A stretch of DNA of 11,183 bases, counting the filler, from an uncultured virus (IMG/VR IMGVR_UViG_2061766007_004248) (Duplodnaviria > Heunggongvirae > Uroviricota > Caudoviricetes). It is 3 parts of one record of this genome, joined end to end, with 100 filler letters (N's around TTAATTAATTAA, not from the genome) between each part and the next. Parts side by side here need not be neighbours in the genome. Positions count along the whole stretch, not along the records: positions 4,701 to 11,183 come from IMGVR_UViG_2061766007_004248; 2 more parts are not named here. One strand, given 5' to 3'. The translations under genes and the position numbers were made by a program. The notes beneath the pieces are model-generated. The model was given only the letters and a program-made list of their open reading frames with translations. It did no database searches and was not told where the DNA came from. Shown in pieces: positions 1 through 11,183 of this stretch. Numbering within the stretch: position 1 is the stretch's first letter; the number at the start of each line of letters is the position of its first letter.

Positions 1-1
1 C

Positions 2-198
2 GCAGATGGAGACGAAAAGAAGAGCTTCGCCTCTATGGCGGAATGGGCAGCTTCGCTTCCCGAAGTGTCGCGCCTGCTCCTGGAGGAGAAGCAGAAGGAA
101 GCGACAGCCGCCTTCGACGCGGATGATGAAGACTGGCAGGATCGCCTCATCCGGGATAAACACGGGAACCTGATCAACAGCCTGCACAATCTTGGTCT
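2..198 (+). CDS. Fragment of a second allele/copy of the VapE primase-helicase (central part)
   Basis: Translates ADGDEKKSFASMAEWAASLPEVSRLLLEEKQKEATAAFDADDEDWQDRLIRDKHGNLINSLHNLG, near-identical to the protein encoded at 2313-2509; truncated by the window edge and an N gap. Confidence 0.9.
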
Positions 199-518
199 NN
201 NNNNNNNNNNNNNNNNNNNNNNNNNNNNNNNNNNNNNNNNNNNNNNNNNNNNNNNNNNNNNNNNNNNNNNNNNNNNNNNNNNNNNNNNNNNNNNNNNNNN
301 NNNNNNNNNNNNNNNNNNNNNNNNNNNNNNNNNNNNNNNNNNNNNNNNNNNNNNNNNNNNNNNNNNNNNNNNNNNNNNNNNNNNNNNNNNNNNNNNNNNN
401 NNNNNNNNNNNNNNNNNNNNNNNNNNNNNNNNNNNNNNNNNNNNNNNNNNNNNNNNNNNNNNNNNNNNNNNNNNNNNNNNNNNNNNNNNNNNNNNNNNNN
501 NNNNNNNNNNNNNNNNNC

Positions 519-628
519 ATCAACGACGGTAAAGCCGGTGCGGAAAAGCTCCAGGGCATTTGGATCATGGAGATCGGGGAGATGGCGGGGATGAGGAAGG
601 CGGAGCAGGAGAAGCTGAAGGCTTTCTT
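519..628 (+). CDS. Fragment of VapE primase-helicase (Walker B region), second allele
   Basis: INDGKAGAEKLQGIWIMEIGEMAGMRKAEQEKLKAF is identical in protein to the segment at about 3127-3236, with a few synonymous differences. Confidence 0.9.
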
Positions 629-638
629 NNNNNNNNNN

Positions 639-740
639 GATGGATTCACTGGGCAAGAAGGTGGTCGCAGATGTGCTTCGGACTGCGCCGGAACCGCTCC
701 GGACGGTCCTGACGCTTCGGCAGCAGCTCGCCATGTCCGC
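639..740 (+). CDS. Internal fragment of a phage-type family A DNA polymerase
   Basis: The frame starting at 640 (not in the ORF track) reads MDSLGKKVVADVLRTAPEPLRTVLTLRQQLAMS. This resembles the 'LGKKAV..LL..AP..L..VL.LRQQLAKSS' segment I recall from PolA of Bacillota siphophage replication modules, which typically also encode VapE and VRR-NUC. Only 33 codons are visible. Confidence 0.7.
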
Positions 741-840
741 NNNNNNNNNNNNNNNNNNNNNNNNNNNNNNNNNNNNNNNNNNNNTTAATTAATTAANNNN
801 NNNNNNNNNNNNNNNNNNNNNNNNNNNNNNNNNNNNNNNN
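741..840. other. Artificial contig-joining linker
   Basis: 44 N + TTAATTAATTAA (785-796, stop codons in all six frames) + 44 N; the identical structure recurs at 4601-4700. Confidence 0.95.
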
Positions 841-1062
841 TCTCCGGAAGCGGTTGAGTACCACCTTCCGTACGTCAGAGACACAGGCGGAGTACCAGAA
901 GATGAAGAGTGCCAGACGCAGCGCGGTAAAGGACAAAGGCGGGTTCGTCGGCGGTGTGCTGAAGGACGGCGTCCGCAGCGCGGTAACCGTGGTTGTTCGA
1001 TCGCTGCTTACTCTGGATGTGGATAACGCCAGCCTCACATTCCTGGACGAATATATGGCGCT
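841..1062 (+). CDS. Duplicate allelic fragment of the VapE N-terminal primase region
   Basis: LRKRLSTTFRTSETQAEYQKMKSARRSAVKDKGGFVGGVLKDG...DEYMA is near-identical to 1487-1708; bounded by the linker and a 10-N gap. Confidence 0.85.
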
Positions 1063-1246
1063 NNNNNNNNNNTATCCGCAGAGGAGCACCGGATCCCGAT
1101 CCGGTATTTCCCTGCAGAACAGGAGGNNNNNNNNNNCATTTCATGCTTGCCCCTCACCTGTGTTTTCCGCAGTTTCTCGATGATGGGGAATGCAGAGGAA
1201 CGGGAGAGCCGTCACCGGGCATGAAAACTGAAATAGNNNNNNNNNN

Positions 1247-1417
1247 CATTTCATGCTTGCCCCTCACCTGTATTTTCCGCAGTTTCTCGATGATGGGGAA
1301 TGCAGAGGAACGGGAGAGCTGTCACCGGGCATGAAAACTGAAATAGCATACGCAGAGGAGCACCGGATCCCGATCCGGTATTTCCCTGCAGAACAGGAGG
1401 ATCATTTTGATGACTGA
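1247..1417 (+). pseudogene. 3' part of a DUF4406-like phage gene, apparently frameshifted and internally deleted
   Basis: Reads HFMLAPHLYFPQFLDDGECRGTGELSPGMKTEIAYAEEHRIPIRYFPAEQEDHFDD*. 'APHL.FPQFLDD' and 'S.GM..EI..A.....IPIRYF' match, from memory, the small gene usually found just upstream of phage VapE. The stop (1415-1417) overlaps the VapE start. Allelic duplicates lie at 1073-1126 and 1137-1236. Confidence 0.65.
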
Positions 1418-3858
1418 ATTCAAGGTGGCTTTCGGTGAAAACCGGCAGGCTAAGAAATGGAAGAACGGCACGATCACGTTGGAAGAGCTCCGGAAGCGGT
1501 TGAGCACCACCTTCCGCACATCAGAGACACAGGCGGAGTACCAGAAGATGAAGAGTGCCGGGCGCAGCTCGGTAAAGGACAAAGGTGGGTTCGTCGGCGG
1601 CGTGCTGAAGGACGGCGTCCGCAGCGCGGTAACCGTGGTTGTTCGCTCTTTACTCACACTGGATGTGGATAACGCCAGCCTCACATTCCTGGACGAATAT
1701 ATGGCGCTTTGCCCTTACGAAACTCTTATCTACACCACCCACGGCCACATGCCGTCGGCCCCCCGCTACCGCCTTGTCATCCCTCTGACGAGGGACATAA
1801 GCCCTGAAGAATACAACGCGATCACCCGCTTCTTTGCCGCAGAACAAGGAATCGAGATGTTCGATACCTGCTCCTTTACTCCTTCTCAGCTGATGTTCTG
1901 GCCCACGACTTCGTCGGACGGTGAATACATCTTCCGGGAGGTGGAGGGCGCTCCCATGGACCCCGACGCTTTTCTGGCGCGTTACCCTTCCTGGAAAGAT
2001 CCCCTGAGCTTGCCCACCTCCTCTAAAGAGGCTCCCGCTCATGAAGGCAAGGGGAAGGTGGAAGACCCGCTTACTAAAGAAGGCATCGTTGGCACCTTCT
2101 GCCGTGCCGTAGGCACGATCCAGAACGCGATAGACCTGTATCTCTCCGACGTGTATGAAAAGGTAAGGGATGACCGCTACCATTTGATCGGGTCTTCAAG
2201 TGGTCCGGGTGTGCAGATCTACAACGACCGGCTTGCATACTCGAACCACGCGACGGACCTGGCTGCCCGTCAGACATGTAACGCTTTCGACCTGATCCGG
2301 CTGCATAAGTTCCCGGATGAAGATCCAAAGAAAAGCTTTTCCGCGATGTCAGAGTGGGCGGCATCTCTGCCGGAAGTGTCGCGCCTGCTCCTGGAGGAGA
2401 AGCAGAAGGAAGCGACAGCCGCCTTCGACGCGGATGATGAAGACTGGCAGGACAGGTTGATCCGGGATAAACACGGGAACCTGATCAACAGCCTGCACAA
2501 TCTTGGTCTCATCATGACCTACGACCCTTATATGCGCAACATCGTCTTCAACCAGCTGGCAGACGGGATGGAGATCAAGGGAGAAGTCCCCTGGTCCCAT
2601 GATGGGAAGAAGTTCTGGCGGGACCAGGACGATGCGCAGCTGATCTGGTATGTGGATCAGAATTACGGGTCCTTCTCCCAGCGAAATTACGATATCGCCG
2701 TCACGAAATGTGTGGATGATCGTTCTTATCACCCCATTAAGGAATACCTGGAAACACTGCCGGAGTGGGACGGGATCCCGAGGGTAGACACTCTTCTGAT
2801 TGATTATCTGGGAGCCGCGGATACGCCGTATGTTCGTGCCGTCACCCGTAAGGAACTCTGTTCGGCCGTTACCCGTGTCTACCACCCCGGCACGAAGTTC
2901 GATACACTCCTGGTCCTTATNNNNNNNNNNCCTTGGCGCGGAGGATAATTCGTATGTTCGTGCCGTCACCCGTAAGGAACTCTGTGCGGCTGTCACCCGT
3001 GTCTACCACCCCGGCACGAAGTTCGATACACTCCTGGTCCTTATCGGGGAACAGGGAATAGGTAAAAGCACCCTGATCGCCCGTCTTGCAATGGACTGGT
3101 TTTCGGATTCGCTGACCCTCTCTGATATCAACGACGGTAAGGCCGGTGCGGAAAAGCTCCAGGGCATCTGGATCATGGAGATTGGAGAGATGGCGGGGAT
3201 GAGGAAGGCGGAGCAGGAGAAGCTGAAAGCTTTCTTCGGGAGACAGGATGATAAATATAGGGCAGCGTTCGGAAGAAGAGTACAAAGCCACCCCCGTCAG
3301 TCGGTGATGTTTGGAACAACCAATGCGGAATCAGGTTTTCTTCGAGACATTACCGGAAATAGAAGATACTGGCCGGTGACTGTTCTTGGAACAGGAACAA
3401 GAAAACCGTGGGAACTGACACAGGACGACGTTAACCAAATCTGGGCAGAAGTACTTGTTCTTGTTTCCAAGGGTGAACCGCTGACGCTCCCCGCCGATCT
3501 TGAGGAACAGGCAAAGGCGGAACAAGCTGCTGCGATGGAAAAAGATGAACGCGAAGGGGTTGTTCGCTTGTTCCTGGAGACGTTGCTACCCGCCAACTGG
3601 GACCAGATGGATCTCTTCTCGCGCCGGGAATATCTCCGGGGAGACGACCTGACCCGGCGTGAGGGGACCGTAAAGCGGAGCGCTGTCTCCAACATAGAGA
3701 TCTGGTGCGAGTGCTTTGGGAGGAACCGGGAAGACCTGAAACCGGCGGAGAGTTATGCTCTTTCCAGCCTCATGTCCCGCATTGAGGGCTGGTCGCGTCC
3801 GAAGACGCTGCAGACGCAAGCGTTGTACGGGAAGCAGCGAGTGTATCTGAGAGAGTAA
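1410..3858 (+). CDS. VapE (virulence-associated E) family phage primase-helicase
   Basis: AGGAGG at 1395-1400, ATG at 1410. The N-terminal primase-like part has KDKGGFVGG, LTLDVD and YTTHGH..PRYRLVIPL. The C-terminal part has Walker A GEQGIGKST, Walker B WIMEIGEM, FGTTN, GNRRYWPV and the terminal YGKQRVY. The two ORFs 1407-2948 and 2800-3858 are one gene broken by a 10-N gap with about 110 bp duplicated on either side. Confidence 0.92.
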
Positions 3859-4150
3859 CAGGCGTTGGAACAAGTCGCGGAGAGGGACGGCGCTTGTTCC
3901 GCNNNNNNNNNNACAGCGAGTGTATCTGAGGGAGTAACAGGCGTTGGAACAAGTCGCGGAGAGGGACAGCGCTTGTTCCGCTTGTTCCTCTCATATCTGC
4001 CCTATTTTATTGGAATTAGGGCTATGGAACGAACAACCTATGAATTTCTTACTAGAACGAATTCATAAAAATAGTAGATATAAGAGTACCAAAACCGCGT
4101 ATTCGCACACGCGAGGAAAATGACGTTATCTGGTTCTCTTGTTACTACGG
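3859..4150. repeat. GGAACAAG/CTTGTTCC inverted and direct repeats plus AT-rich tract; candidate replication origin
   Basis: GGAACAAG 3867-3874 with CTTGTTCC 3893-3900; duplicate allele GGAACAAG 3946-3953 with CTTGTTCC at 3972-3979 and 3981-3988; AT-rich stretch about 4000-4095. The repeats are seen directly; origin function is inferred from the position after a primase-helicase. Confidence 0.45.
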
Positions 4151-4321
4151 ACCGGGAGGTATCAATGATAAGGGAAAGGGATGTAGAAGCCTCTCTCATA
4201 CGGGAGATAAGGANNNNNNNNNNGGCAAATGATAAGAGAGAAAGATGTAGAAGCCTCTCTCATACGGGAGATAAGGAAACAGGGCGGGCTCTGNNNNNNN
4301 NNNTGGACCGGGAGGTGGCAA

Positions 4322-4600
4322 ATGATAAGGGAAAGGGATGTAGAAGCCTCTCTCATACGGGAGATAAGGAAACAGGGCGGGCTCTGCCTGAAATTTGTGA
4401 GTCCCGGGTGGAGCGGGGCACCGGACCGGATCTGTCTTTGGAAGGGCGGGCGCATGGCCTTCGCCGAGGTGAAGAGACCGGGAGCGAAGCAGCGTCTCCT
4501 GCAGACCCGCAGGGCGGAGCAGCTGAGAAGCCTCGGTTTTACCGTGGCTATTATCGACAGCCCGGAGGAGGCAGAGCGGTTCGCAAAGTCTGGAGGCGGT
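4322..4600 (+). CDS. VRR-NUC domain nuclease (phage), 3' end lost in linker
   Basis: GGAGG upstream; MIRERDVEASLIREIRKQGGLCLKFVSPGWSGAPDRICLWKGGRMAFAEVKRPG...Q......LRSLGF carries the PD...EVK (PD-(D/E)XK) motif typical of VRR-NUC. Partial allelic duplicates of the 5' end start at 4165 and 4229. Confidence 0.9.
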
Positions 4601-4700
4601 NNNNNNNNNNNNNNNNNNNNNNNNNNNNNNNNNNNNNNNNNNNNTTAATTAATTAANNNNNNNNNNNNNNNNNNNNNNNNNNNNNNNNNNNNNNNNNNNN
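4601..4700. other. Artificial contig-joining linker
   Basis: 44 N + TTAATTAATTAA (4645-4656) + 44 N. Confidence 0.95.
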
Positions 4701-4704
4701 AGAG

Positions 4705-4715
4705 TGTGCTATAAT
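4705..4715 (+). promoter_or_regulatory. Extended -10 promoter (TGTGcTATAAT) upstream of the metK-like gene
   Basis: Perfect TATAAT at 4710-4715 preceded by a TRTG motif at 4705-4708; the -35 region is hidden by the linker. Confidence 0.7.
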
Positions 4716-4735
4716 GGTATCATGTTGAAGACTGG

Positions 4736-4767
4736 GGAAAGGGCTCCGCGCACGCGGGGTCCTTTTC
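4736..4767 (+). terminator. Terminator-like hairpin in the metK-like leader
   Basis: GGAAAGGGCTCCGC-GCAC-GCGGGGTCCTTTTC: a 14-bp stem with G-U pairs ending in TTTT, lying between the promoter and the AAGGAGG ribosome-binding site. Confidence 0.55.
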
Positions 4768-4786
4768 ATATGCAAAGGAGGTTCCT

Positions 4787-5569
4787 ATGTTTGAAAAAGT
4801 GAATCCATCCCACCCTGATAAGGTCGCCGATCGCATCGCCGGCGCGCTGGTGGACATGGCGTACCGTAAAACGACACAACCGCGTATTGCTGTTGAGGTT
4901 CTCATCGGCCATGGCGTGTGCCACATTATTTGTGAGACTTCGGTCAGGCTGCCGGAGAAGGAAGTGTACCGGACAGTACGGCGTATTGCCGGTGACGTGT
5001 ATGTGGATCTCAGGCAGCTTCCGCAGGATGAACAGCTCGCCCAGAACCAGTCGCATGGTCTGCGCTGCGGCGACAACGGCATCTTCCGGGGTATGCCCGT
5101 GACCCGCGAGCAGAAGAGGCTCTCACGGATAGCGAGGCGGATTTACGAGCAGTTTCCATATGACGGAAAGTACATACTCGACGGTGACCGGCTGATCATC
5201 TGCCAGAGCAATACCAGATCAAGGGACCTGCAACGCATGTTCCCCTCGGCTGAGATCAATCCCTTGGGCGACTGGACAGGCGGCACTGACGTGGACACCG
5301 GCGCGGTCAACCGCAAGCTCGGCAGCGACATGGGCGATTCCATTACCGGCGGAGGCCTGCACGGCAAGGACCTGAGCAAGGCTGACGTGAGCGTGAACAT
5401 CTACGCATGGCTCAAGGCGCAGCTGATCCAGGAGCCCGTCGAGATATCCTGCGCGATAGGGGACGATCACGTTGACGGGCTGCCGTACGCTGTCATAGTC
5501 GACGTGGCCCGGAGATACATTAACGCCGTCGGCGGATTTGAGAGATTCGCCGAGTGGGGACTGATATGA
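4787..5569 (+). CDS. metK: Compact S-adenosylmethionine synthetase (MetK)-like protein, prophage type
   Basis: Diverged MetK motifs appear in order: HPDKVADRI (canonical GHPDKxxDQI), CGDNG (GAGDQG), GGTDVDTGAVNRK (GGPxGDxGLTGRK), GGGLHGKDLSKADVS (GGGAFSGKDPSKVDRS). Strong RBS; 260 aa; no gaps. Confidence 0.85.
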   Translation: MFEKVNPSHPDKVADRIAGALVDMAYRKTTQPRIAVEVLIGHGVCHIICETSVRLPEKEVYRTVRRIAGDVYVDLRQLPQDEQLAQNQSHGLRCGDNGIFRGMPVTREQKRLSRIARRIYEQFPYDGKYILDGDRLIICQSNTRSRDLQRMFPSAEINPLGDWTGGTDVDTGAVNRKLGSDMGDSITGGGLHGKDLSKADVSVNIYAWLKAQLIQEPVEISCAIGDDHVDGLPYAVIVDVARRYINAVGGFERFAEWGLI

Positions 5570-5570
5570 T

Positions 5571-5611
5571 AAAAAACTGCCGGTCAGATGAAACGCTATA
5601 TCTGACCGGCA
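5571..5611 (-). terminator. Intrinsic terminator between convergent metK-like and YgiT genes
   Basis: Perfect 12-bp inverted repeat TGCCGGTCAGAT (5578-5589) / ATCTGACCGGCA (5600-5611); AAAAAA at 5571-5576 gives a U-tract on the minus strand. Confidence 0.85.
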
Positions 5612-5632
5612 TACATGTATAAAGCTAAACTG

Positions 5633-5860
5633 CTATGCAACATCATCGAAGTAAAGGATGGTTTGCTCTTCCATACGCGATTTTGCGTCTTCGATGATCT
5701 TTTCAATTTTCTTGACCACATCGCCGGTATAAAGGATCTCATCACACTCCTCGCATTTATAGCAGGGAATATCGCGAATGACCAGCAGGCCAAACCCAAG
5801 TTCGATTGCTTCGGATGTTAAACTCTTATATACTGGTTTCCCGCATTTCATGCATCTCAT
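5633..5860 (-). CDS. YgiT-type zinc finger protein (MqsA N-terminal-like), putative antitoxin
   Basis: MRCMKCG...LLVIRDIPCYKCEECDEILY has two CxxC pairs with the YgiT 'I.DIP...C..C.E..Y' pattern. The true start is ATG at 5860 with AAAGGAG upstream and an ATGA overlap with the upstream stop; 75 aa. Confidence 0.85.
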   Translation of the reverse strand: MRCMKCGKPVYKSLTSEAIELGFGLLVIRDIPCYKCEECDEILYTGDVVKKIEKIIEDAKSRMEEQTILYFDDVA

Positions 5861-6174
5861 ATTGTTTGCTCCTTTCGTGTTTTCATGTCTGATTCCCATT
5901 TGTCCGGATCAGGGGCATAGGCTGTTACAACATATATCTTGTCAGACTCGATGCTGAGCACGGCGTGCAGGGCACGTTCTCCTGAATATCCAAGAACCAG
6001 GCAACTTGGAGACGGAAAGGCATCCGGATATTGTTCGATGATACTGCCTGTCTTGATCGTAAATATAATATCATCGATACCAATACCGCGTTCGGCAAAC
6101 CTTTTCCTGCTGTGCTGGGTCATTATCAATGACTCAGCCTTATTCAATAATTGGAATTGCTCGATAGAGTACAT
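5857..6174 (-). CDS. DUF4258 domain protein, putative toxin
   Basis: TQHSRKRFAERGI..DDI...I..G.IIEQYPDAFPSPSCLVLG.....LHAV.......YVVTAYAPDPDKWESDMKTRK fits the DUF4258 pattern; GAGGAG RBS; translationally coupled to the YgiT gene. Confidence 0.85.
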   Translation of the reverse strand: MYSIEQFQLLNKAESLIMTQHSRKRFAERGIGIDDIIFTIKTGSIIEQYPDAFPSPSCLVLGYSGERALHAVLSIESDKIYVVTAYAPDPDKWESDMKTRKEQTI

Positions 6175-6203
6175 TGTTTTCTCCTCACGACTTCACAATA
6201 CAG

Positions 6204-6232
6204 ATTTTACCACATTTCGAAAAAAGAATCAA
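6204..6232 (-). promoter_or_regulatory. Sigma70/SigA promoter for the DUF4258-YgiT operon
   Basis: Minus strand TTGATT (6232-6227), 17 bp spacer, TAAAAT (6209-6204), with TGTG just upstream of the -10. Confidence 0.75.
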
Positions 6233-6524
6233 TTATCCTGTTGGTTAAATTGACTTCCTTGGCCAACTGAACAGAGCTATCCGTTATTTATCTTGACTTT
6301 CATTCCGAGCTGACGGATATATGTAGCGATCATTTGGAAGCCTGCAAATAAAAAGTCANNNNNNNNNNNNNNNNNNNNNNNNNNNNNNNNNNNNNNNNNN
6401 NNNNNNNNNNNNNNNNNNNNNNNNNNNNNNNNNNNNNNNNNNNNNNNNNNNNNNNNNNNNNNNNNNNNNNNNNNNNNNNNNNNNNNNNNNNNNNNNNNNN
6501 NNNNNNNNNNNNNNNNNNNNNNNN

Positions 6525-7906
6525 CTCAGACAGGGACTGTTCCCAGAGGCCTTTCTCTTTGAGACAGTCACGAACCTTTCCGTAGTAGATGCGCAAGAAC
6601 TTGGTCATGCCGGCAGTCATGTACACATAGTACTGTTTGCCCTCGGAGCGTTTCTTGTCAAGGAACTGGTAAACCGGGTCATCGGCGGGCTGTAGCTGCA
6701 GCAGGATCGTCATAATGATAAAAAGCGTTTTGCGAAGGTATGGAGNNNNNNNNNNAGCAAAGCCAACAAGCGACTTCTGATGTACAAAACGGCGAAGGTC
6801 ACCAATCTCGGCCATCAGCTGCGGTCCCATGGACTTGCCTACGCCGGTCATGGCCATGACAGTCTCGTATTCCGGAAGCTGAGAGGCCAGNNNNNNNNNN
6901 AGCCACGTTTGCTGCTGGGCTTGCTGTCGGAAACCTTGTCGCCGGAATCATCCTTGACCGGATCAGTGCCAGCAAAGCCTACCAGAGACTTCTGGTGCGC
7001 AAAGCGGTGAAGGTCGCCGATCTCTGCCATCAGCTGCGGTCCCATGGACTTGCCCACACCGGTCATAGCCATGACTGTCTCGTACTCCGGAAGCTGAGAA
7101 GCAAGGCGGTCCATCTCGGCACGGTAGATTTCCACCGTGCGTGAAACGGCATTGAGCTGAGCAACCGCTTCTCTGACCAGGAGCCTGCAGGTGTCGGACT
7201 TGAGCACCAGCGGGAACTTCTGCCGGGCATCCTCGTGAATCTCGTCAGCCTTAGCTTCTGAGAAGTTATAGCCGTGGCGCTTGCACCACTTCTGGTACCG
7301 CTCCACAAAGGCCTTCCGGCTGACCTTGGCCACGCAGTCCACATGCCAGAAGGTGCCCACAAAGTCCACCCATTTCTGACTGCCATCCGGCCGCACCGGG
7401 CTGTCAAAGTACCTGTTCGCGCCTGGATAGCTCTGCTCCAACAGAGCAATGAGATTGTTGTTCAGCGCGGTCTTGGTCTTGGAAGACAGCTGGAACTGTC
7501 GGTGAAGGGTCTTGAGGTCGTAACGAATCGTATCCATGGGAGTATAGTGCGGCAGGATCTCCCATTTGTCAATGGCAAACTGAGCGATCTTCAGAGCATC
7601 TGCCTTGTCGGTCTTCACCTTGCGGACGCTGATCCCCTCCTGGTAATCCTTGATGGCCAGCGGGTTCACGGCGGACACGAAGAAGCCTGCCCGGTACATG
7701 CTCATGGCGAAGGATTCGTAGTACCGCCCGGTATGCTCCATGACGATCCTGACCTCACCATCCAAAGTACGCAGTCTTGCCGCCAATTCGGCAAAGCCAT
7801 CGGCGGTGTGCTGAACCTCGTAAGGTCTCACAGCCACCATTCTTCTGGCACCGAGTACGGCAACCGTGCTCCTGCCGTTTGAAACATCGACCCCTACTGC
7901 GAACAT
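6525..7906 (-). CDS. IS110-family transposase/recombinase (DEDD RuvC-like + Tnp20 domain); stop codon lies in the N gap
   Basis: VGVDVS (D), MEHTG (E), KTDKADA (DD); C-terminal GVG...LMAEIGD..RF......GFAG.DP...DSG...SKRG.PYLRKTLF with the conserved serine motif; GGAGG RBS at 7918-7914. Interrupted by 10-N gaps with an extra allelic copy at 6756-6890. Confidence 0.95.
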
Positions 7907-7919
7907 GCTGAATCCTCCC

Positions 7920-8163
7920 GATGTGTTACTACAATGGCTTACCGCCTTTACCCATCGCCGATTCTATCTGTTCGCTGACCCGAGTGACCCTGACGGGCGC
8001 TCTACCTGCACAAATCGAACGCTGTACAACGGGAAGGCCGACTGGCTGACTCAGGTACGAGCGTGATGCTCTTGGAGGCATTCGTCAGGCCATTGCCCTC
8101 CCATTGTACAGCTTAGGCAATGAGATGTCCCTCGCCTGTGGCTGGCTGCCACGAACATGGGGC
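7920..8163 (-). ncRNA. Predicted IS110 bridge RNA (5' stem-loop, target-binding loop, donor-binding loop)
   Basis: 5' hairpin 8158-8125. An 18-bp stem (8112-8095 with 8038-8021) closes an internal loop GAAUGCCUCCAA / GUACCUGA around a GAGC-GCUC hairpin. A second stem CGAUUU/GAAUCG (8017-8012 / 7964-7959) encloses UGCAGG and AACAG, which match the element junction. Boundaries are approximate and folding was done by eye. Confidence 0.8.
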
Positions 8164-8192
8164 AAACATATAGTAACAGGGAGGCGGAACGA

Positions 8193-9039
8193 ATGCATGA
8201 TTACTTTGGGGGAACAACCGGCCAGCGGATTGAAGACCTGATCCGGGAAAACCGGATTTCACAGGCAGTATTGGCCAAGGCCGTCAATGTTTCCAAAGCA
8301 ACCATGAGCCGTTATATTCAGGATAAATGCGAAATCCCTTCCGACACTCTCCGCGCAATTGCCGGGTACCTTGATGTCACTCCGGATTTTCTCCTTGGTG
8401 TGACAGATATCCCGTTTAAGACGAACCATGATATCGACCGGCTTGGCCTGACAGCTGAGGCTGCAAGGAGAATGCTCGCCGGTCAGCTGGATATGCGCGT
8501 TCTGAACATATTGATTGAGAACGATGACTTCGCGGTCCTGACAAAACAGATTGCGCAGTACGTCGATGCAGCCCAGCGCGAAAGCCTGTCGGTGATGAAT
8601 GCNNNNNNNNNNGACTGCCGGAAAACTCGTGACCCGGCATTCTGAAACACATCCGCAGGATAAGGAAAACGCCCTCAGGGCGTATCATGATATCCGCGGC
8701 AGCATGGTCACCCCGTCTTTACCGGACACAGCTGCCATGGAGTCAACCTGGTCCAGAATCCTGGATGAACTCCGCAAAGGCGCAGAAGACCGGATTCGGA
8801 AAAACGTGAAACTGACAACGGATATCATGGAGAAGATCATGGCCGGTCTGGAAGAACGCAAAACCAAAACCGATCTGCACAGCACAACCGTCCGCGATAT
8901 CACGCACGCAATCACCGATGTTATCACAGCCGCCGGTTTCCCTGAGAATGAGAAAGAAGCATTGGAGAAGAGCTTGCGAGAGTTGTTTGACCGATTTGTG
9001 AAAACGAGGGGAGAAAACCCTAATATCATACCAAAGTGA
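8193..9039 (+). CDS. XRE-family helix-turn-helix transcriptional regulator with long helical C-terminus
   Basis: GGAGG at 8180-8184 then ATG 8193; GQRIEDLIRENRISQAVLAKAVNVSKATMSRYIQD...IAGYLDVTPDFLLG is a classic XRE HTH. ORFs 8157-8645 and 8599-9039 probably join across the 10-N gap at 8603-8612. Confidence 0.85.
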
Positions 9040-9533
9040 ACTGATCCGATTAGCGTGTTTAAGGCAGTGTTGTCCCACTTGGTTATCGATCCTATGCATT
9101 NNNNNNNNNNNNNNNNNNNNNNNNNNNNNNNNNNNNNNNNNNNNNNNNNNNNNNNNNNNNNNNNNNNNNNNNNNTCGCCGTCTGCGGGGTAAGAATATCC
9201 AATGGTAACAGTTGATTGCATCAGTCTCTCCCGCAGAGAAGGGATCCCCTTCATCTGACCGTNNNNNNNNNNNNNNNNNNNNNNNNNNNNNNNNNNNNNN
9301 NNNNNNNNNNNNNNNNNNNNNNNNNNNNNNNNNNNNNNNNNNNNNNNNNNNNNNATAAGGCACCAGGTGTGTTCGGTTGTTTCCGCATGGTTCTGCTTTG
9401 GTGTACTATACCCATAATATATATTATATTATAATATTATTATATTTTTGGGTTATGTGCCATTAAGTATCCACTTTGGTGCCTTTTTGATTATCATTTA
9501 TGACCAATGTGGTATCGTTTTGGGAACAAAGCC

Positions 9534-9660
9534 GAGATGTGTGGTTTGATTTTCAGGCCACACCGGCCTGGTTTTGGAAACATGATCGGGNNNNNNNNNN
9601 ATTGGGATGTGTGGTTTCATTGTCAGGCTGCAACGATCTGGTTTGGGAAACATGATCGGG
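9534..9660 (+). repeat. Two diverged 57-bp direct repeat units
   Basis: 9534-9590 versus 9604-9660 differ at 9 of 57 positions; they are separated by a 10-N gap, so they may be alleles rather than a true tandem repeat. Confidence 0.4.
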
Positions 9661-10139
9661 TTCAACCGTTTCAGTGCAGTCGCCCATGGGTCGGTNNNNN
9701 NNNNNNNNNNNNNNNNNNNNNNNNNNNNNNNNNNNNNNNNNNNNNNNNNNNNNNNNNNTTTTTTGCTTCCTAAAGCGTTACGTTCCGGGATGCTTTCCGG
9801 GTCTGACGATATCGGCGCTGACGCTCCTGCTTTGATGTACGGAAAACGGTAGTGCTGCAGATGGAGCAGTATTAAGAAGATCAAAGAATCCGATAACTTG
9901 CGTCAGGTACACGGACAGCTAGATCCTGTTCTGGACGCGTTAATATCTGATGGAATGCTGAAGCGAGGATCGATTGTGCTAAACATGTTTATTTTTGGTA
10001 AAATTATTATAGAAGGTAAGGAAAGAGCCCTTCCAGAANNNNNNNNNNCCTGAAAGTCTCATGCCAGTCGCCTGCAGCAGTTCATGGTGAAGCGGCAGAC
10101 AGGTCGACAATGTCAAATACGGCCAAACACAAACCAATA

Positions 10140-10169
10140 TTGACAAATTTATCCATCCTATGTTACAAT
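10140..10169 (+). promoter_or_regulatory. Near-consensus sigma70/SigA promoter
   Basis: TTGACA (10140-10145), 18 bp spacer, TACAAT (10164-10169) with TGn extension; the gene it drives is hidden by the gap at 10216. Confidence 0.65.
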
Positions 10170-10225
10170 AACAGGGCAGAGAAAGACACGCACCAGATGG
10201 TGCGGATGGCGACCGNNNNNNNNNN

Positions 10226-10336
10226 GTTTCGGAATTCGACGAAGTGATCTGGGGCAGCCTGGTGGAATATGTGACCGTAGGCAAAGACAAAACAATGGTG
10301 TTCACGCTGATAGGCGGGACTGAGATGAGGGGCTGA
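10226..10336 (+). CDS. C-terminal end of a large serine recombinase (integrase)
   Basis: A frame absent from the ORF track reads VSEFDEVIWGSLVEYVTVGKDKTMVFTLIGGTEMRG*. This matches, from memory, the 'EFDE.LW..LV..VTV......F.F..G.E' tail of Bacillota large serine recombinases. Only 36 residues are visible. Confidence 0.7.
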   Translation, partial: VSEFDEVIWGSLVEYVTVGKDKTMVFTLIGGTEMRG

Positions 10337-10365
10337 AGCAACACTCGAGTGTCGGNNNNNNNNNN

Positions 10366-11183
10366 AGAAACTGGTTTGCCTGCTGCTGGCGGCCGTGCTG
10401 TGCATGGCTTGGACACTGACCCTGGCTGAGGAGACTGCACCCCGTGACCTGGAGGCCGAGAAGGCCGCCTTCCTGGAGACCCTGCAGGCTGAAGGCCGCG
10501 CAGAGGTCGGCGTCTGGAAGGTCGAACGGATCCGCGACAATGTGTATCACATGGATGAGGACACCGTCGGCAACCCCGGCGGCTCCATCTCCCCCGAGGG
10601 CGTCTTCAACAATCCGTCCTCCATCTACTTCATCGTGGAAGAGGGCGAGGTCCTGATCGTGGACCTCGGCAATCCGACCTTCGGCGAAGGCGAGACCGAC
10701 GCGAAGGTCATCATGGAGGCCATGACCGCCGGCAAGNNNNNNNNNNNNNNNNNNNNNNNNNNNNACCGGCCTGGGCCGCAGCACGGCGGTCTTCGAGAAT
10801 ATCGACGTGCAGAAGGTCCTGATCGGCGCGCCCGACCTTGAGACCGCCATGGACGCCATCGGCCAGTTCGAGGGCAAGATCGAGGCCCTCGAGGACGGCC
10901 AGACCTTCACCTGGGCCGGCACGGAACTCACCGCCTACATCGTGGCCGCCCACACCCCCGGCTCGCTGNNNNNNNNNNNNNNNNNNNNNNNNNNNNNNNN
11001 NNNNNNNNNNNCCTGCTGATCACCGGCGACACCTTCGGCAGCGGCGCCGTGTGGGTGTTCTGGCCCAGTCCCGACGGGAACCCGCTGCAGATCCTCCGGG
11101 ACGGCACCTCCCGCGCACGCGACATCCTCAACAACATGACCGATGTCCGCATCCTGGCCGGCCACCGCTGCCAGCAGTTCTGG
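10366..11183 (+). CDS. Secreted metallo-beta-lactamase-fold hydrolase (partial, gapped), probably a host gene
   Basis: Signal-peptide-like KLVCLLLAAVLCMAWTLTLA; MBL motifs in order VLIVDLG, [HxHxDH position falls in the N gap], AHTPGS, LLITGDTFG, ILAGH. Markedly higher GC and GC3 than the upstream genes. Confidence 0.8.

Follow-up and report, generated by a model that had tools for sequence, protein, structure and literature searches.

The insertion sequence IS621 targets repetitive extragenic palindromic (REP) repeats. In published descriptions, its left end carries a bridge RNA, a promoter is rebuilt at the circle junction, and the RNA folds into a 5' hairpin, a target loop and a donor loop, in that order (PMC11208160, PMC11208158). 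Here, we analyze a stretch of 11,183 nucleotides (the window, whose positions are used throughout) from an uncultured virus of the Caudoviricetes (IMG/VR IMGVR_UViG_2061766007_004248). The minus-strand element running from 8177 to 6341 is, with high confidence, an IS110-group insertion sequence whose left end encodes an IS621-type bridge RNA. An earlier note, drawn from the DNA of the window alone, had proposed such a bispecific RNA, with a target loop preceding a donor loop around a CT core, and had reasoned that its stems should covary among homologues, as should its first loop with the flanking DNA.

How does this locus compare with IS621? The two RNAs share a left-end position, a junction promoter (predicted, for the window), a 5' hairpin and the order of the loops. 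In both, the left guides repeat the top strand, the right guides are complementary to it, and a CT core is complemented in both right guides. Both systems also have a handshake dinucleotide (a candidate one, for the window) after the right target guide and a recombinase that combines a DEDD RuvC-like domain with a Tnp domain containing a serine. Covariation in about 40 homologous insertions and an empty insertion site uphold the central proposal of the earlier note, so that it no longer depends solely on the hexamers of the window copy.

The element, its recombinase and a structured left-end RNA

We scanned one genome per species using the first 334 recombinase residues as the query. This returned 88 pattern matches, among which 76 relatives in 74 loci were confirmed (45-94% identity), nearly all from gut or rumen Clostridia (Oscillospiraceae, Christensenellales, Lachnospiraceae and others). 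When 22 upstream regions were aligned (the window and 21 close loci), homology began abruptly at CTGTTAC, and the sequence to the left of this motif was locus-specific. On the minus strand of the window, the left junction reads ...CATTCGTTCCGCCTCC-CT-GTTACTATATGTTTGCCCC..., with the core dinucleotide CT at 8178..8179; it is followed by about 270 nt of non-coding sequence (8177-7907) and then by the recombinase open reading frame (ORF). The far end reads (N)TGACTTTTTATTTGCAGG-CT-TCCAAATG on the same strand. A search of 22 group-1 elements, the window among them, located the right end ...TTGACTTTTTATTTGCAGG-CT in 17; the remainder are truncated or stop at a contig edge. In a sister clade (~50% identity), the ends are ...TTGACTTTTGTTTGCAGGA-CT and CT-CCTACAAT. 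Some relatives are decayed: L005 is a truncated copy followed by unrelated genes, and the recombinase ORFs of L017, L051, L063 and L067 have early stops. L037 has TT at its left end in place of the core and a right flank resembling its own left end, which suggests a tandem or rearranged copy.

When right and left ends are brought together, they create TTGACT, a 17-nt spacer (13 nt, the core and 2 nt) and TACTAT or TACAAT, an arrangement conserved in both clades. In the window, the right end (6339..6358, minus strand) contributes the -35 box as (N)TGACT, its first T being an N, then a 13-nt spacer ending in the left donor TGCAGG (6346-6341) and the core CT (6340-6339). The left end (8170..8177, minus strand) contributes the right donor GTT (8177-8175), which pairs with the right donor guide described below and overlaps the -10 box TACTAT (8175-8170). 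We predict, from sequence alone, that the right-left circle junction is a sigma-70 promoter, matching at this level the rebuilt promoter of IS621. A weak promoter-like site directed outward, toward the flanking gene, also lies at 8146-8174 on the plus strand (CTGCCA-17-TATAGT, 9/12 consensus match).

The recombinase ORF starts at 7906 on the minus strand, behind a Shine-Dalgarno (SD) sequence, GGGAGG, at 7919-7914. Pfam recognized DEDD_Tnp_IS110 (PF01548, 1e-24) and Transposase_20 (PF02371, 5.4e-13), and the N-terminal part of the gene extends over 334 codons (6904..7906). Its translation retains D7, E57, the KTDKADA motif and a DDSGD serine loop; the catalytic residues reported for IS621 are D11/E60/D102/D105/S241 (PMC11208158). 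A full-length relative of 414 aa (L003) matched the IS621 transposase (8wt6, E = 8.3e-16) in an alignment that includes the SG of the serine loop. It also matched, over the Tnp domain, a second solved homologue named ISCro4 transposase by its depositors (PDB 9t56, E = 3.4e-14), a likeness drawn by protein alone. In this recombinase family, a DEDD RuvC-like domain thus precedes a Tnp domain that keeps the conserved serine, the 3' part of the window gene being gapped. The C-terminal piece (6525..6745, minus strand; Transposase_20, 5.5e-05) is out of frame with the N-terminal part because of scaffold gaps.

The left end folds unusually well. The 273-nt stretch at 7920-8192 had a minimum free energy of -111.7 kcal/mol (z = -4.38), which none of 200 shuffled sequences equaled, and its single-sequence fold contained a 5' hairpin, an 18-bp stem around loop 1 and a second loop region, as the earlier note had described. 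We aligned 51 distinct RNAs with MAFFT (alignment A1) and derived a consensus structure with RNAalifold. Of its 41 pairs, 24 showed changes on both sides. Standard pairs filled 96.3% of cells, compared with 88.7% after shuffling, and 194 cells were changed on both sides, compared with 68; none of 500 shuffles reached the observed value for any of five structure measures. Sliding the pairing partners by 1-3 columns lowered pairing to 27-50%. The long left end upstream of the recombinase gene therefore holds a structured non-coding RNA, and the expected covariation of its stems is present.

The predicted bridge RNA spans 7951..8163 on the minus strand. Both ends are putative: the start is placed about 7 nt after the -10 box and the end at the 3' strand of the closing helix. 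From 5' to 3', it begins with the 5' hairpin (helix 1, 8135..8154; four of seven pairs change on both sides), followed by a closing helix 2 that encloses both loops (8116..8124 pairing with 7959-7951; seven pairs, four double-changed, 98.9% paired). The target-binding arm occupies 8021..8112. Its basal stem, 8112-8095 with 8038-8021, has the 18 bp noted earlier in the window copy and corresponds in the consensus to helix 3 (8112-8097 with 8036-8021; 13 consensus pairs, seven double-changed). A further helix flanks the target loop in the consensus structure, and within the loop stands an inner hairpin, GAGC-AUCAC-GCUC (8059..8071, helix 5; three of four pairs change on both sides). The donor loop has an upper hairpin, GAG-CGCCC...GGGUCA-CUC (7982..8002, helix 6), with three of three pairs double-changed and the outer GAG/CUC read by eye. 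The extra internal hairpins attributed earlier to the donor loop come down to this ordinary upper hairpin, and the target loop has the same feature (GAGC...GCTC). The donor nucleotides may sit in a multi-loop or in an internal loop: an invariant UUCGAUU (8019-8013) could pair with GAUAGAA (7968-7962) as a basal stem of the donor arm; these columns being invariant, covariation is uninformative here. In two sister-clade RNAs that are otherwise typical (L053, L056), the donor-loop hairpin carries an insertion of about 100 nt.

Guides, core and handshake

Three short matches had originally pointed to guides in this RNA, and all three were found on the minus strand. GCCTCC occurs in loop 1 (8079-8074) and in the flank just before the CT at 8179-8178 (8185-8180); TGCAGG occurs in loop 2 (8010-8005) and just before the CT at 6340-6339 (6346-6341); and AACAG (7972-7968) is complementary to CTGTT (8179-8175). 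These matches are lifted above chance by covariation across the family, not by the hexamers alone. We extracted guides and flanks using anchors and regular expressions placed in conserved parts, and loci failing the anchors were dropped. The left guide was scored wherever 12 nt of left flank were present, the guide could be extracted and the core read CT or CA; the odd core calls L035, L037 and L060 were dropped, and the other losses were due to contig ends or anchor failures.

The left target guide consists of AAUGCCUC followed by a core guide CA (8073..8082, minus strand). At the core it reads CA in the window's clade, where the C at core position 1 is conserved, and CT in the sister clade; this conserved C was set on core position 1 to fix the register. 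Across 39 loci, 195 of 312 guide positions (5.0 of 8) agreed with the left flank of the same element, compared with a non-self mean of 2.77 of 8, and none of 10,000 permutations reached the observed count. The distal positions, -8 to -4, gave the same picture (105/195, compared with 53.6 when permuted). In the clade of L021-L023 ([Clostridium] asparagiforme DSM 15981), no spacer nucleotide separates the left target guide from the inner hairpin, and the register of this guide is one off that of the other clades. Two of these loci, L022 and L023, have identical RNAs at two different sites, each only partly guide-matched, and recombinase ORFs that end after 142 aa.

On the 3' side of loop 1 lie two features absent from the earlier note: a right target guide (8057-8050), made of UACCUG and the core complement AG (8051-8050), and a handshake dinucleotide, UC (8049-8048), together 8048..8057 on the minus strand. 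Once reverse-complemented, the 6 nt before AG agreed with the right flank of their own locus at 176 of 240 positions (40 loci); the permuted mean was 83.6 (standard deviation 7.7), and 0 of 10,000 permutations reached the observed value. The excess persisted in the window's clade alone (64/96, compared with 37.0). Thus, the 5' side of loop 1 repeats the top strand of the left target, its 3' side complements the right target, and each side varies together with the insertion site, as had been anticipated for loop 1.

Loop 2 is tied in the same way to the ends of the element itself. The left donor guide, UGUGCAGG (8005..8012, minus strand), ends in the last 6 nt of the right end. Guide and right end match in several variants: GCAGG, GTAGG (L018, L020), GTAAG (L026, L028), GCAAG (L024), CGCAGG (L014, L015) and GCAGA (L047), with exceptions in L016, L029, L042 and L063. 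The right donor guide AACAG (7968..7972, minus strand) is complementary to the core and right donor, and across clades guide and left end vary together as AACAG/CTGTT, AGGAG/CTCCT, AGTAG/CTACT and GACTG/CAGTT (L020), with no exceptions noted. These donor correspondences were read from the table of loci, without a permutation test.

CT is the core in the window and, with a single exception, throughout the 40 loci. That exception, L020 (Vescimonas sanitatis), carries CA at each junction, and its guides follow suit: UG in the right target guide, CUG in its right donor counterpart and CA in the left target guide. The core complement (AG, or UG in L020) was correct in 40/40 loci, so that the same core stands at both junctions and is complemented in both right guides. 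In IS621, handshake guides are described 3' of the right guides (PMC11208158). Here, in 40/40 loci, the dinucleotide next to the right target guide could pair with the final two positions of the right end, through the combinations UC/GG, UC/GA, UU/AG and AC/GT.

What mechanism would these parts serve? By analogy with IS621, excision would join the right and left ends into a circle, with a junction ...TTGACTTTTTATTTGCAGG-CT-GTTACTATAT... that would create the promoter TTGACT, 17 nt, TACTAT. This promoter would transcribe a bridge RNA of about 215 nt and probably also the recombinase gene behind it. As the covariation shows, the left guide of the target loop (about 8 nt and a core nucleotide) corresponds to the top strand left of the insertion point, and the right guide (5-6 nt and AG) is complementary to the core and right target. 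The next two nucleotides could pair, after strand exchange, with the last two of the right end. In the donor region, covariation likewise shows that UGUGCAGG stands for the right end of the element and AACAG for the complement of the core and left end. The RNA would bind the DEDD/Ser recombinase and direct recombination of the circle into the target at the CT core, and the guides would presumably be reprogrammable, as in the known systems.

Several points weigh against reading the region as a bridge RNA that acts in this way. A search of the window in Rfam 15 gave no match at the gathering score, and one of 6200-8400 gave nothing relevant at E <= 10, although a bridge-RNA model is perhaps absent from that database. 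The hexamers by themselves are weak, the window containing 7 copies of GCCTCC (expectation 7.2) and 15 of TGCAGG (expectation 6.1). Guides were usable in 39 (left) and 40 (right) of 62 elements (the window and 61 loci), and because related sequences share ancestry, the permutation counts exaggerate how independent the loci are. Behind the right donor guide stands an invariant AU, which does not pair with target positions -1/-2, and a donor-side handshake is not supported by these sequences. The window recombinase gene is interrupted by N runs, which are scaffold gaps. Four public rumen and gut runs were compared, each in the form of assembled contigs, a form of data that displays neither the transcript start nor the circle junction and in which a lack of cover carries no weight. 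Finally, the window copy fits its own guides poorly. In the family register, only 2 of 8 positions of its left guide, AAUGCCUC-CA, agree with the left flank, CCGCCTCC-CT, and a shift of +1 raises this to 6 of 8; its right guide, UACCUG-AG, predicts CT-CAGGTA, and the flank CT-TCCAAA matches at 1 of 6 positions, the worst of the 40 loci.

Could the region be only a cis-acting leader of the recombinase mRNA, acting in translational control or stability and containing no guides? The matches would then reflect chance together with an SD-like motif. The commonness of the hexamers in the window suits this account, as does the CCTC beside the core, which most targets of the clade share, so that part of the loop-1 match is a family motif and not site-specific. 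Moreover, no terminator is predicted and the RNA runs straight into the recombinase SD. But the variable guides track their own flanks, at the distal left positions and across the right guide, beyond any of 10,000 permutations, and the core, the donor guides and the handshake dinucleotide change in step with the element ends. We consider a leader without guides scarcely credible and retain the bridge RNA.

The window copy and its insertion site

Why does the window copy fit its guides so poorly? On the left, the guide looks short because its target carries an additional C beside the core. The claim that the left guides stop short of the core does not survive for the target guide, given the core dinucleotides it carries in the two clades and this extra C; the match of the loop-1 hexamer to its flank is genuine, though it lies one nucleotide out of the family register. 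The +1 offset also fits L005 (7/8), L012 and L034 (6/8 each), the extra target nucleotide lying within 1-2 nt of the core, and the right guide keeps its normal register in L012 (5/6) and L034 (6/6). In the window, the cognate left target is CATTCGTTCCGCCTCC (8180..8195, minus strand). Read on the plus strand, it comprises an SD (GGAGG), a spacer and the ATG of a gene at 8196-8645 (+), in which Pfam finds helix-turn-helix (HTH) domains.

On the right, an empty site accounts for the mismatch. The HTH protein was found without the element in three metagenome contigs, at 97-100% identity; no relatives of it were found in the viral contigs searched. The contig L075 matched the window at 98% from 8178 to 9053 and not at all before 8178, so that its homology starts at the core. 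Directly upstream, it reads ...TATAATAGAGGTACTACACCTG-AG-GGAGGCGGAACGAATG, which on the element strand is CCGCCTCC-CT-CAGGTG, and the left target is uninterrupted in both L075 and L077. The right guide of the window pairs with CT-CAGGTG at five of six positions, the sixth forming a G·U pair; because of this pairing, the guide is cognate to the empty site. In L075, the HTH gene has a promoter, TTGCAA-17-TATAAT. By comparison with the empty site, then, the window copy is inserted at the site of its own guide, between the HTH promoter and the SD. Insertion at CATTCGTTCCGCCTCC-CT-CAGGTG, at the 5' edge of the SD of the HTH regulator, would have cut this gene from its promoter.

By the same comparison, the DNA beyond the right end in the window is foreign to the insertion site. 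The present right flank, TCCAAATG... (6200..6338, minus strand), is not the cognate right target, and 6200-6338 is unrelated to L075:2380-2482, the DNA upstream of the same HTH gene. It resembles a promoter and a short leader without its gene, and is probably the right target of another copy of the element. The match between loop 2 and the far end of the element, as first noted, thus involves a genuine right end, with DNA beyond it that is not the cognate right half; the right end itself (6339-6358) may come from another copy.

How did a foreign flank come to lie there? A chimeric scaffold joined across the repeat is the most likely cause, because the window (1-11183) is a heavily gapped scaffold with 26 N runs and a piece of another copy lies inside the element. 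This piece (6756..6890, minus strand), between two 10-N gaps, is attributed to another copy because it is merely 86.7% identical, over 135 nt, to the adjoining recombinase sequence at 6971-7105. Joins across the IS110 element in this scaffold should not be trusted. Alternatively, homologous recombination between two element copies, and not the assembler, could have swapped the right flank inside the cell. The family has multiple copies, the left end joins several different flanks (loose ends at 8180-8181 in runs X2 and X15), and run X2 contains both flanks of the window. Yet the gaps and the diverged piece inside the element are what a scaffolder produces with repeats, and no contig was seen to bridge the whole element. 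The run contigs break at 8178 and 6338, with many short pieces from diverged copies, and do not decide between a scaffold chimera and a real exchange. We regard exchange in the cell as rather unlikely, though it deserves to be kept in mind.

The arrangement in the window might also be real and direct, the element having inserted by a half-match, or off target, at a site with TCCAAATG as its right half and needing its left guide alone. Half-site matches are reported to suffice for IS621 insertion in vitro and to explain many off-target events (Xie et al. 2026 preprint). Contigs of run X2 reproduce both flanks (5900-6338 and 8239-8450) without a single differing letter, and the promoter-like look of the present right flank would suit such a site. 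Against it, the DNA that precedes this HTH gene in L075/L077 pairs with the right guide, homology of these contigs to the window ends exactly at the core, and the gaps, the foreign piece and the breaks in the run contigs speak for a faulty join. As the main cause of the 1/6 right-guide match, half-match or off-target insertion was rejected once the empty site was found, and we hold it to be very improbable. A chimeric join thus remains the preferred explanation of the flank.

In run X15, an RNA library, a contig from a diverged copy with a loose end at 8180 continues from the left end into a different flank. The last 7 nt before its core (element strand) are those of the window left guide, without any shift of register; this one contig, which has 23 differences, hints at a best site of the window guide elsewhere.

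Where do other members of the family insert? A start codon lying 5-21 nt from the core and opening a long ORF directed away from the element was found in 26 of 43 left flanks, compared with 82 of 403 shifted control positions. The cut falls at the 5' edge of the SD, between AG and GAGG... in the window's clade and between AG and GTG... in the sister clade; therefore, the left guide covers the SD-to-start spacer of one particular gene. Among 22 close relatives with recombinases 82-94% identical, there are about 21 distinct left guides. It is conceivable, if on balance doubtful, that this Oscillospiraceae/Clostridia clade consists of bridge recombinases that naturally retarget from gene to gene, each guide aimed at the SD and start of a different gene, uncoupling specific genes from their promoters and tolerating a 1-nt bulge near the core. 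Equally tentative is the corollary that the element would always be oriented between gene and promoter with the SD left intact. If true, such a clade would be more than an ordinary selfish insertion sequence with a fixed repeat target.

Elsewhere in the window, 192-3858 (+) holds genes with VapE-like primase/helicase domains, apparently split by gaps, 4787-5569 (+) a 260-aa ORF with only the N-terminal domain of S-adenosylmethionine (SAM) synthetase, and 5857-6174 (-) a DUF4258 gene. These neighbors suggest a mobile or phage-like island.

Comparison with described systems

Insertion at translation-initiation signals has a precedent in IS900. For this element, Doran and colleagues reportedly gave a target consensus in 1997, with insertion between the ribosome-binding site and the start codon. 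The window's clade differs in cutting at the 5' edge of the SD, which keeps SD and start codon together. IS110 members of the IS900 group are described as inserting in one orientation at translation-initiation signals, and the gene hed stands for 'host expression dependent' (PMC8141618). Because IS110 elements that aim at such signals are known, the SD-directed preference seen here is a variation on a known habit of the group. IS900 has hed, whereas the window's clade has no conserved antisense ORF: in 20 elements, the longest stop-free antisense stretches ranged from 74 to 427 aa and were unconserved. The window has one such long stretch at 7274-7882 (+), and a hed-like gene in the element is unlikely.

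A second comparison is with seekRNA, which in IS1111-type elements lies downstream of the transposase gene, the elements having subterminal inverted repeats (PMC11187229). Like seekRNA, the window RNA spells out both target and donor; unlike it, the window RNA lies upstream, in the left end. Closer by description only is CazIS110-1 of Caloranaerobacter azorensis, an IS110 element for which a bridge RNA and two pathways, copy-out and direct transfer, are reported from experiments (10.1101/2025.10.25.684509); it shares with the window element the IS110 group, a bridge RNA and a Clostridia-class host.

Compared with IS621, protein homology is distant, being limited to two short aligned stretches, and the recombinase has about 414 aa as against 326. 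The right target guide is longer, with 5-6 nt and the core as against the 4 nt including the core given for IS621 (PMC11208160). The core is described as part of all four guide pairings in IS621 (PMC11208160). Here, both right guides include it, the left target guide has CA in the window's clade and pairs with only the first of the two core nucleotides, and the left donor guide stops at position -1. The last point is a difference of degree because the left donor guide of IS621 is also one nucleotide shorter than its left target guide (PMC11208158). The window RNA further has an extra closing helix (8124-8116 with 7959-7951) around both arms, and the right end of the window element is about 220 nt long. 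Lastly, the window's clade targets 5' regions of genes, not REP repeats.

Variation of this order is already on record. Durrant et al. 2024 predicted thousands of orthologues, some with longer right guides (PMC11208160), and a later catalogue gives 32,190 bridge RNAs, 86 covariance models and guide totals from 12 to 40 nt, many of its RNAs having longer guides and folds that deviate from IS621 (10.64898/2026.10.21.760802). The window's clade very likely falls within such a catalogue; in the literature searched, which did not extend to the catalogue supplements, no paper on this clade was found. The label proposed by the earlier note, a candidate new programmable recombinase-RNA pair, is fair as far as it goes, for a kind already catalogued at this scale.

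The locus nonetheless has its uses. For engineering, it offers a right target guide longer than that of IS621, a natural CA core variant, and natural examples of mismatches that are tolerated and of a register slip by 1 nt. For annotation, it illustrates that a bridge RNA can test an assembly, the guide here exposing a flank foreign to the insertion. We conclude that this is a well-supported, ordinary, new and uncharacterised member of a known and heavily catalogued kind, and no new kind of system. It is a clean natural example of a bridge RNA in uncultured rumen or gut Clostridia, in which the elements of the IS621 model (two guides per loop, a core, one handshake guide and a junction promoter) are visible by comparison alone.

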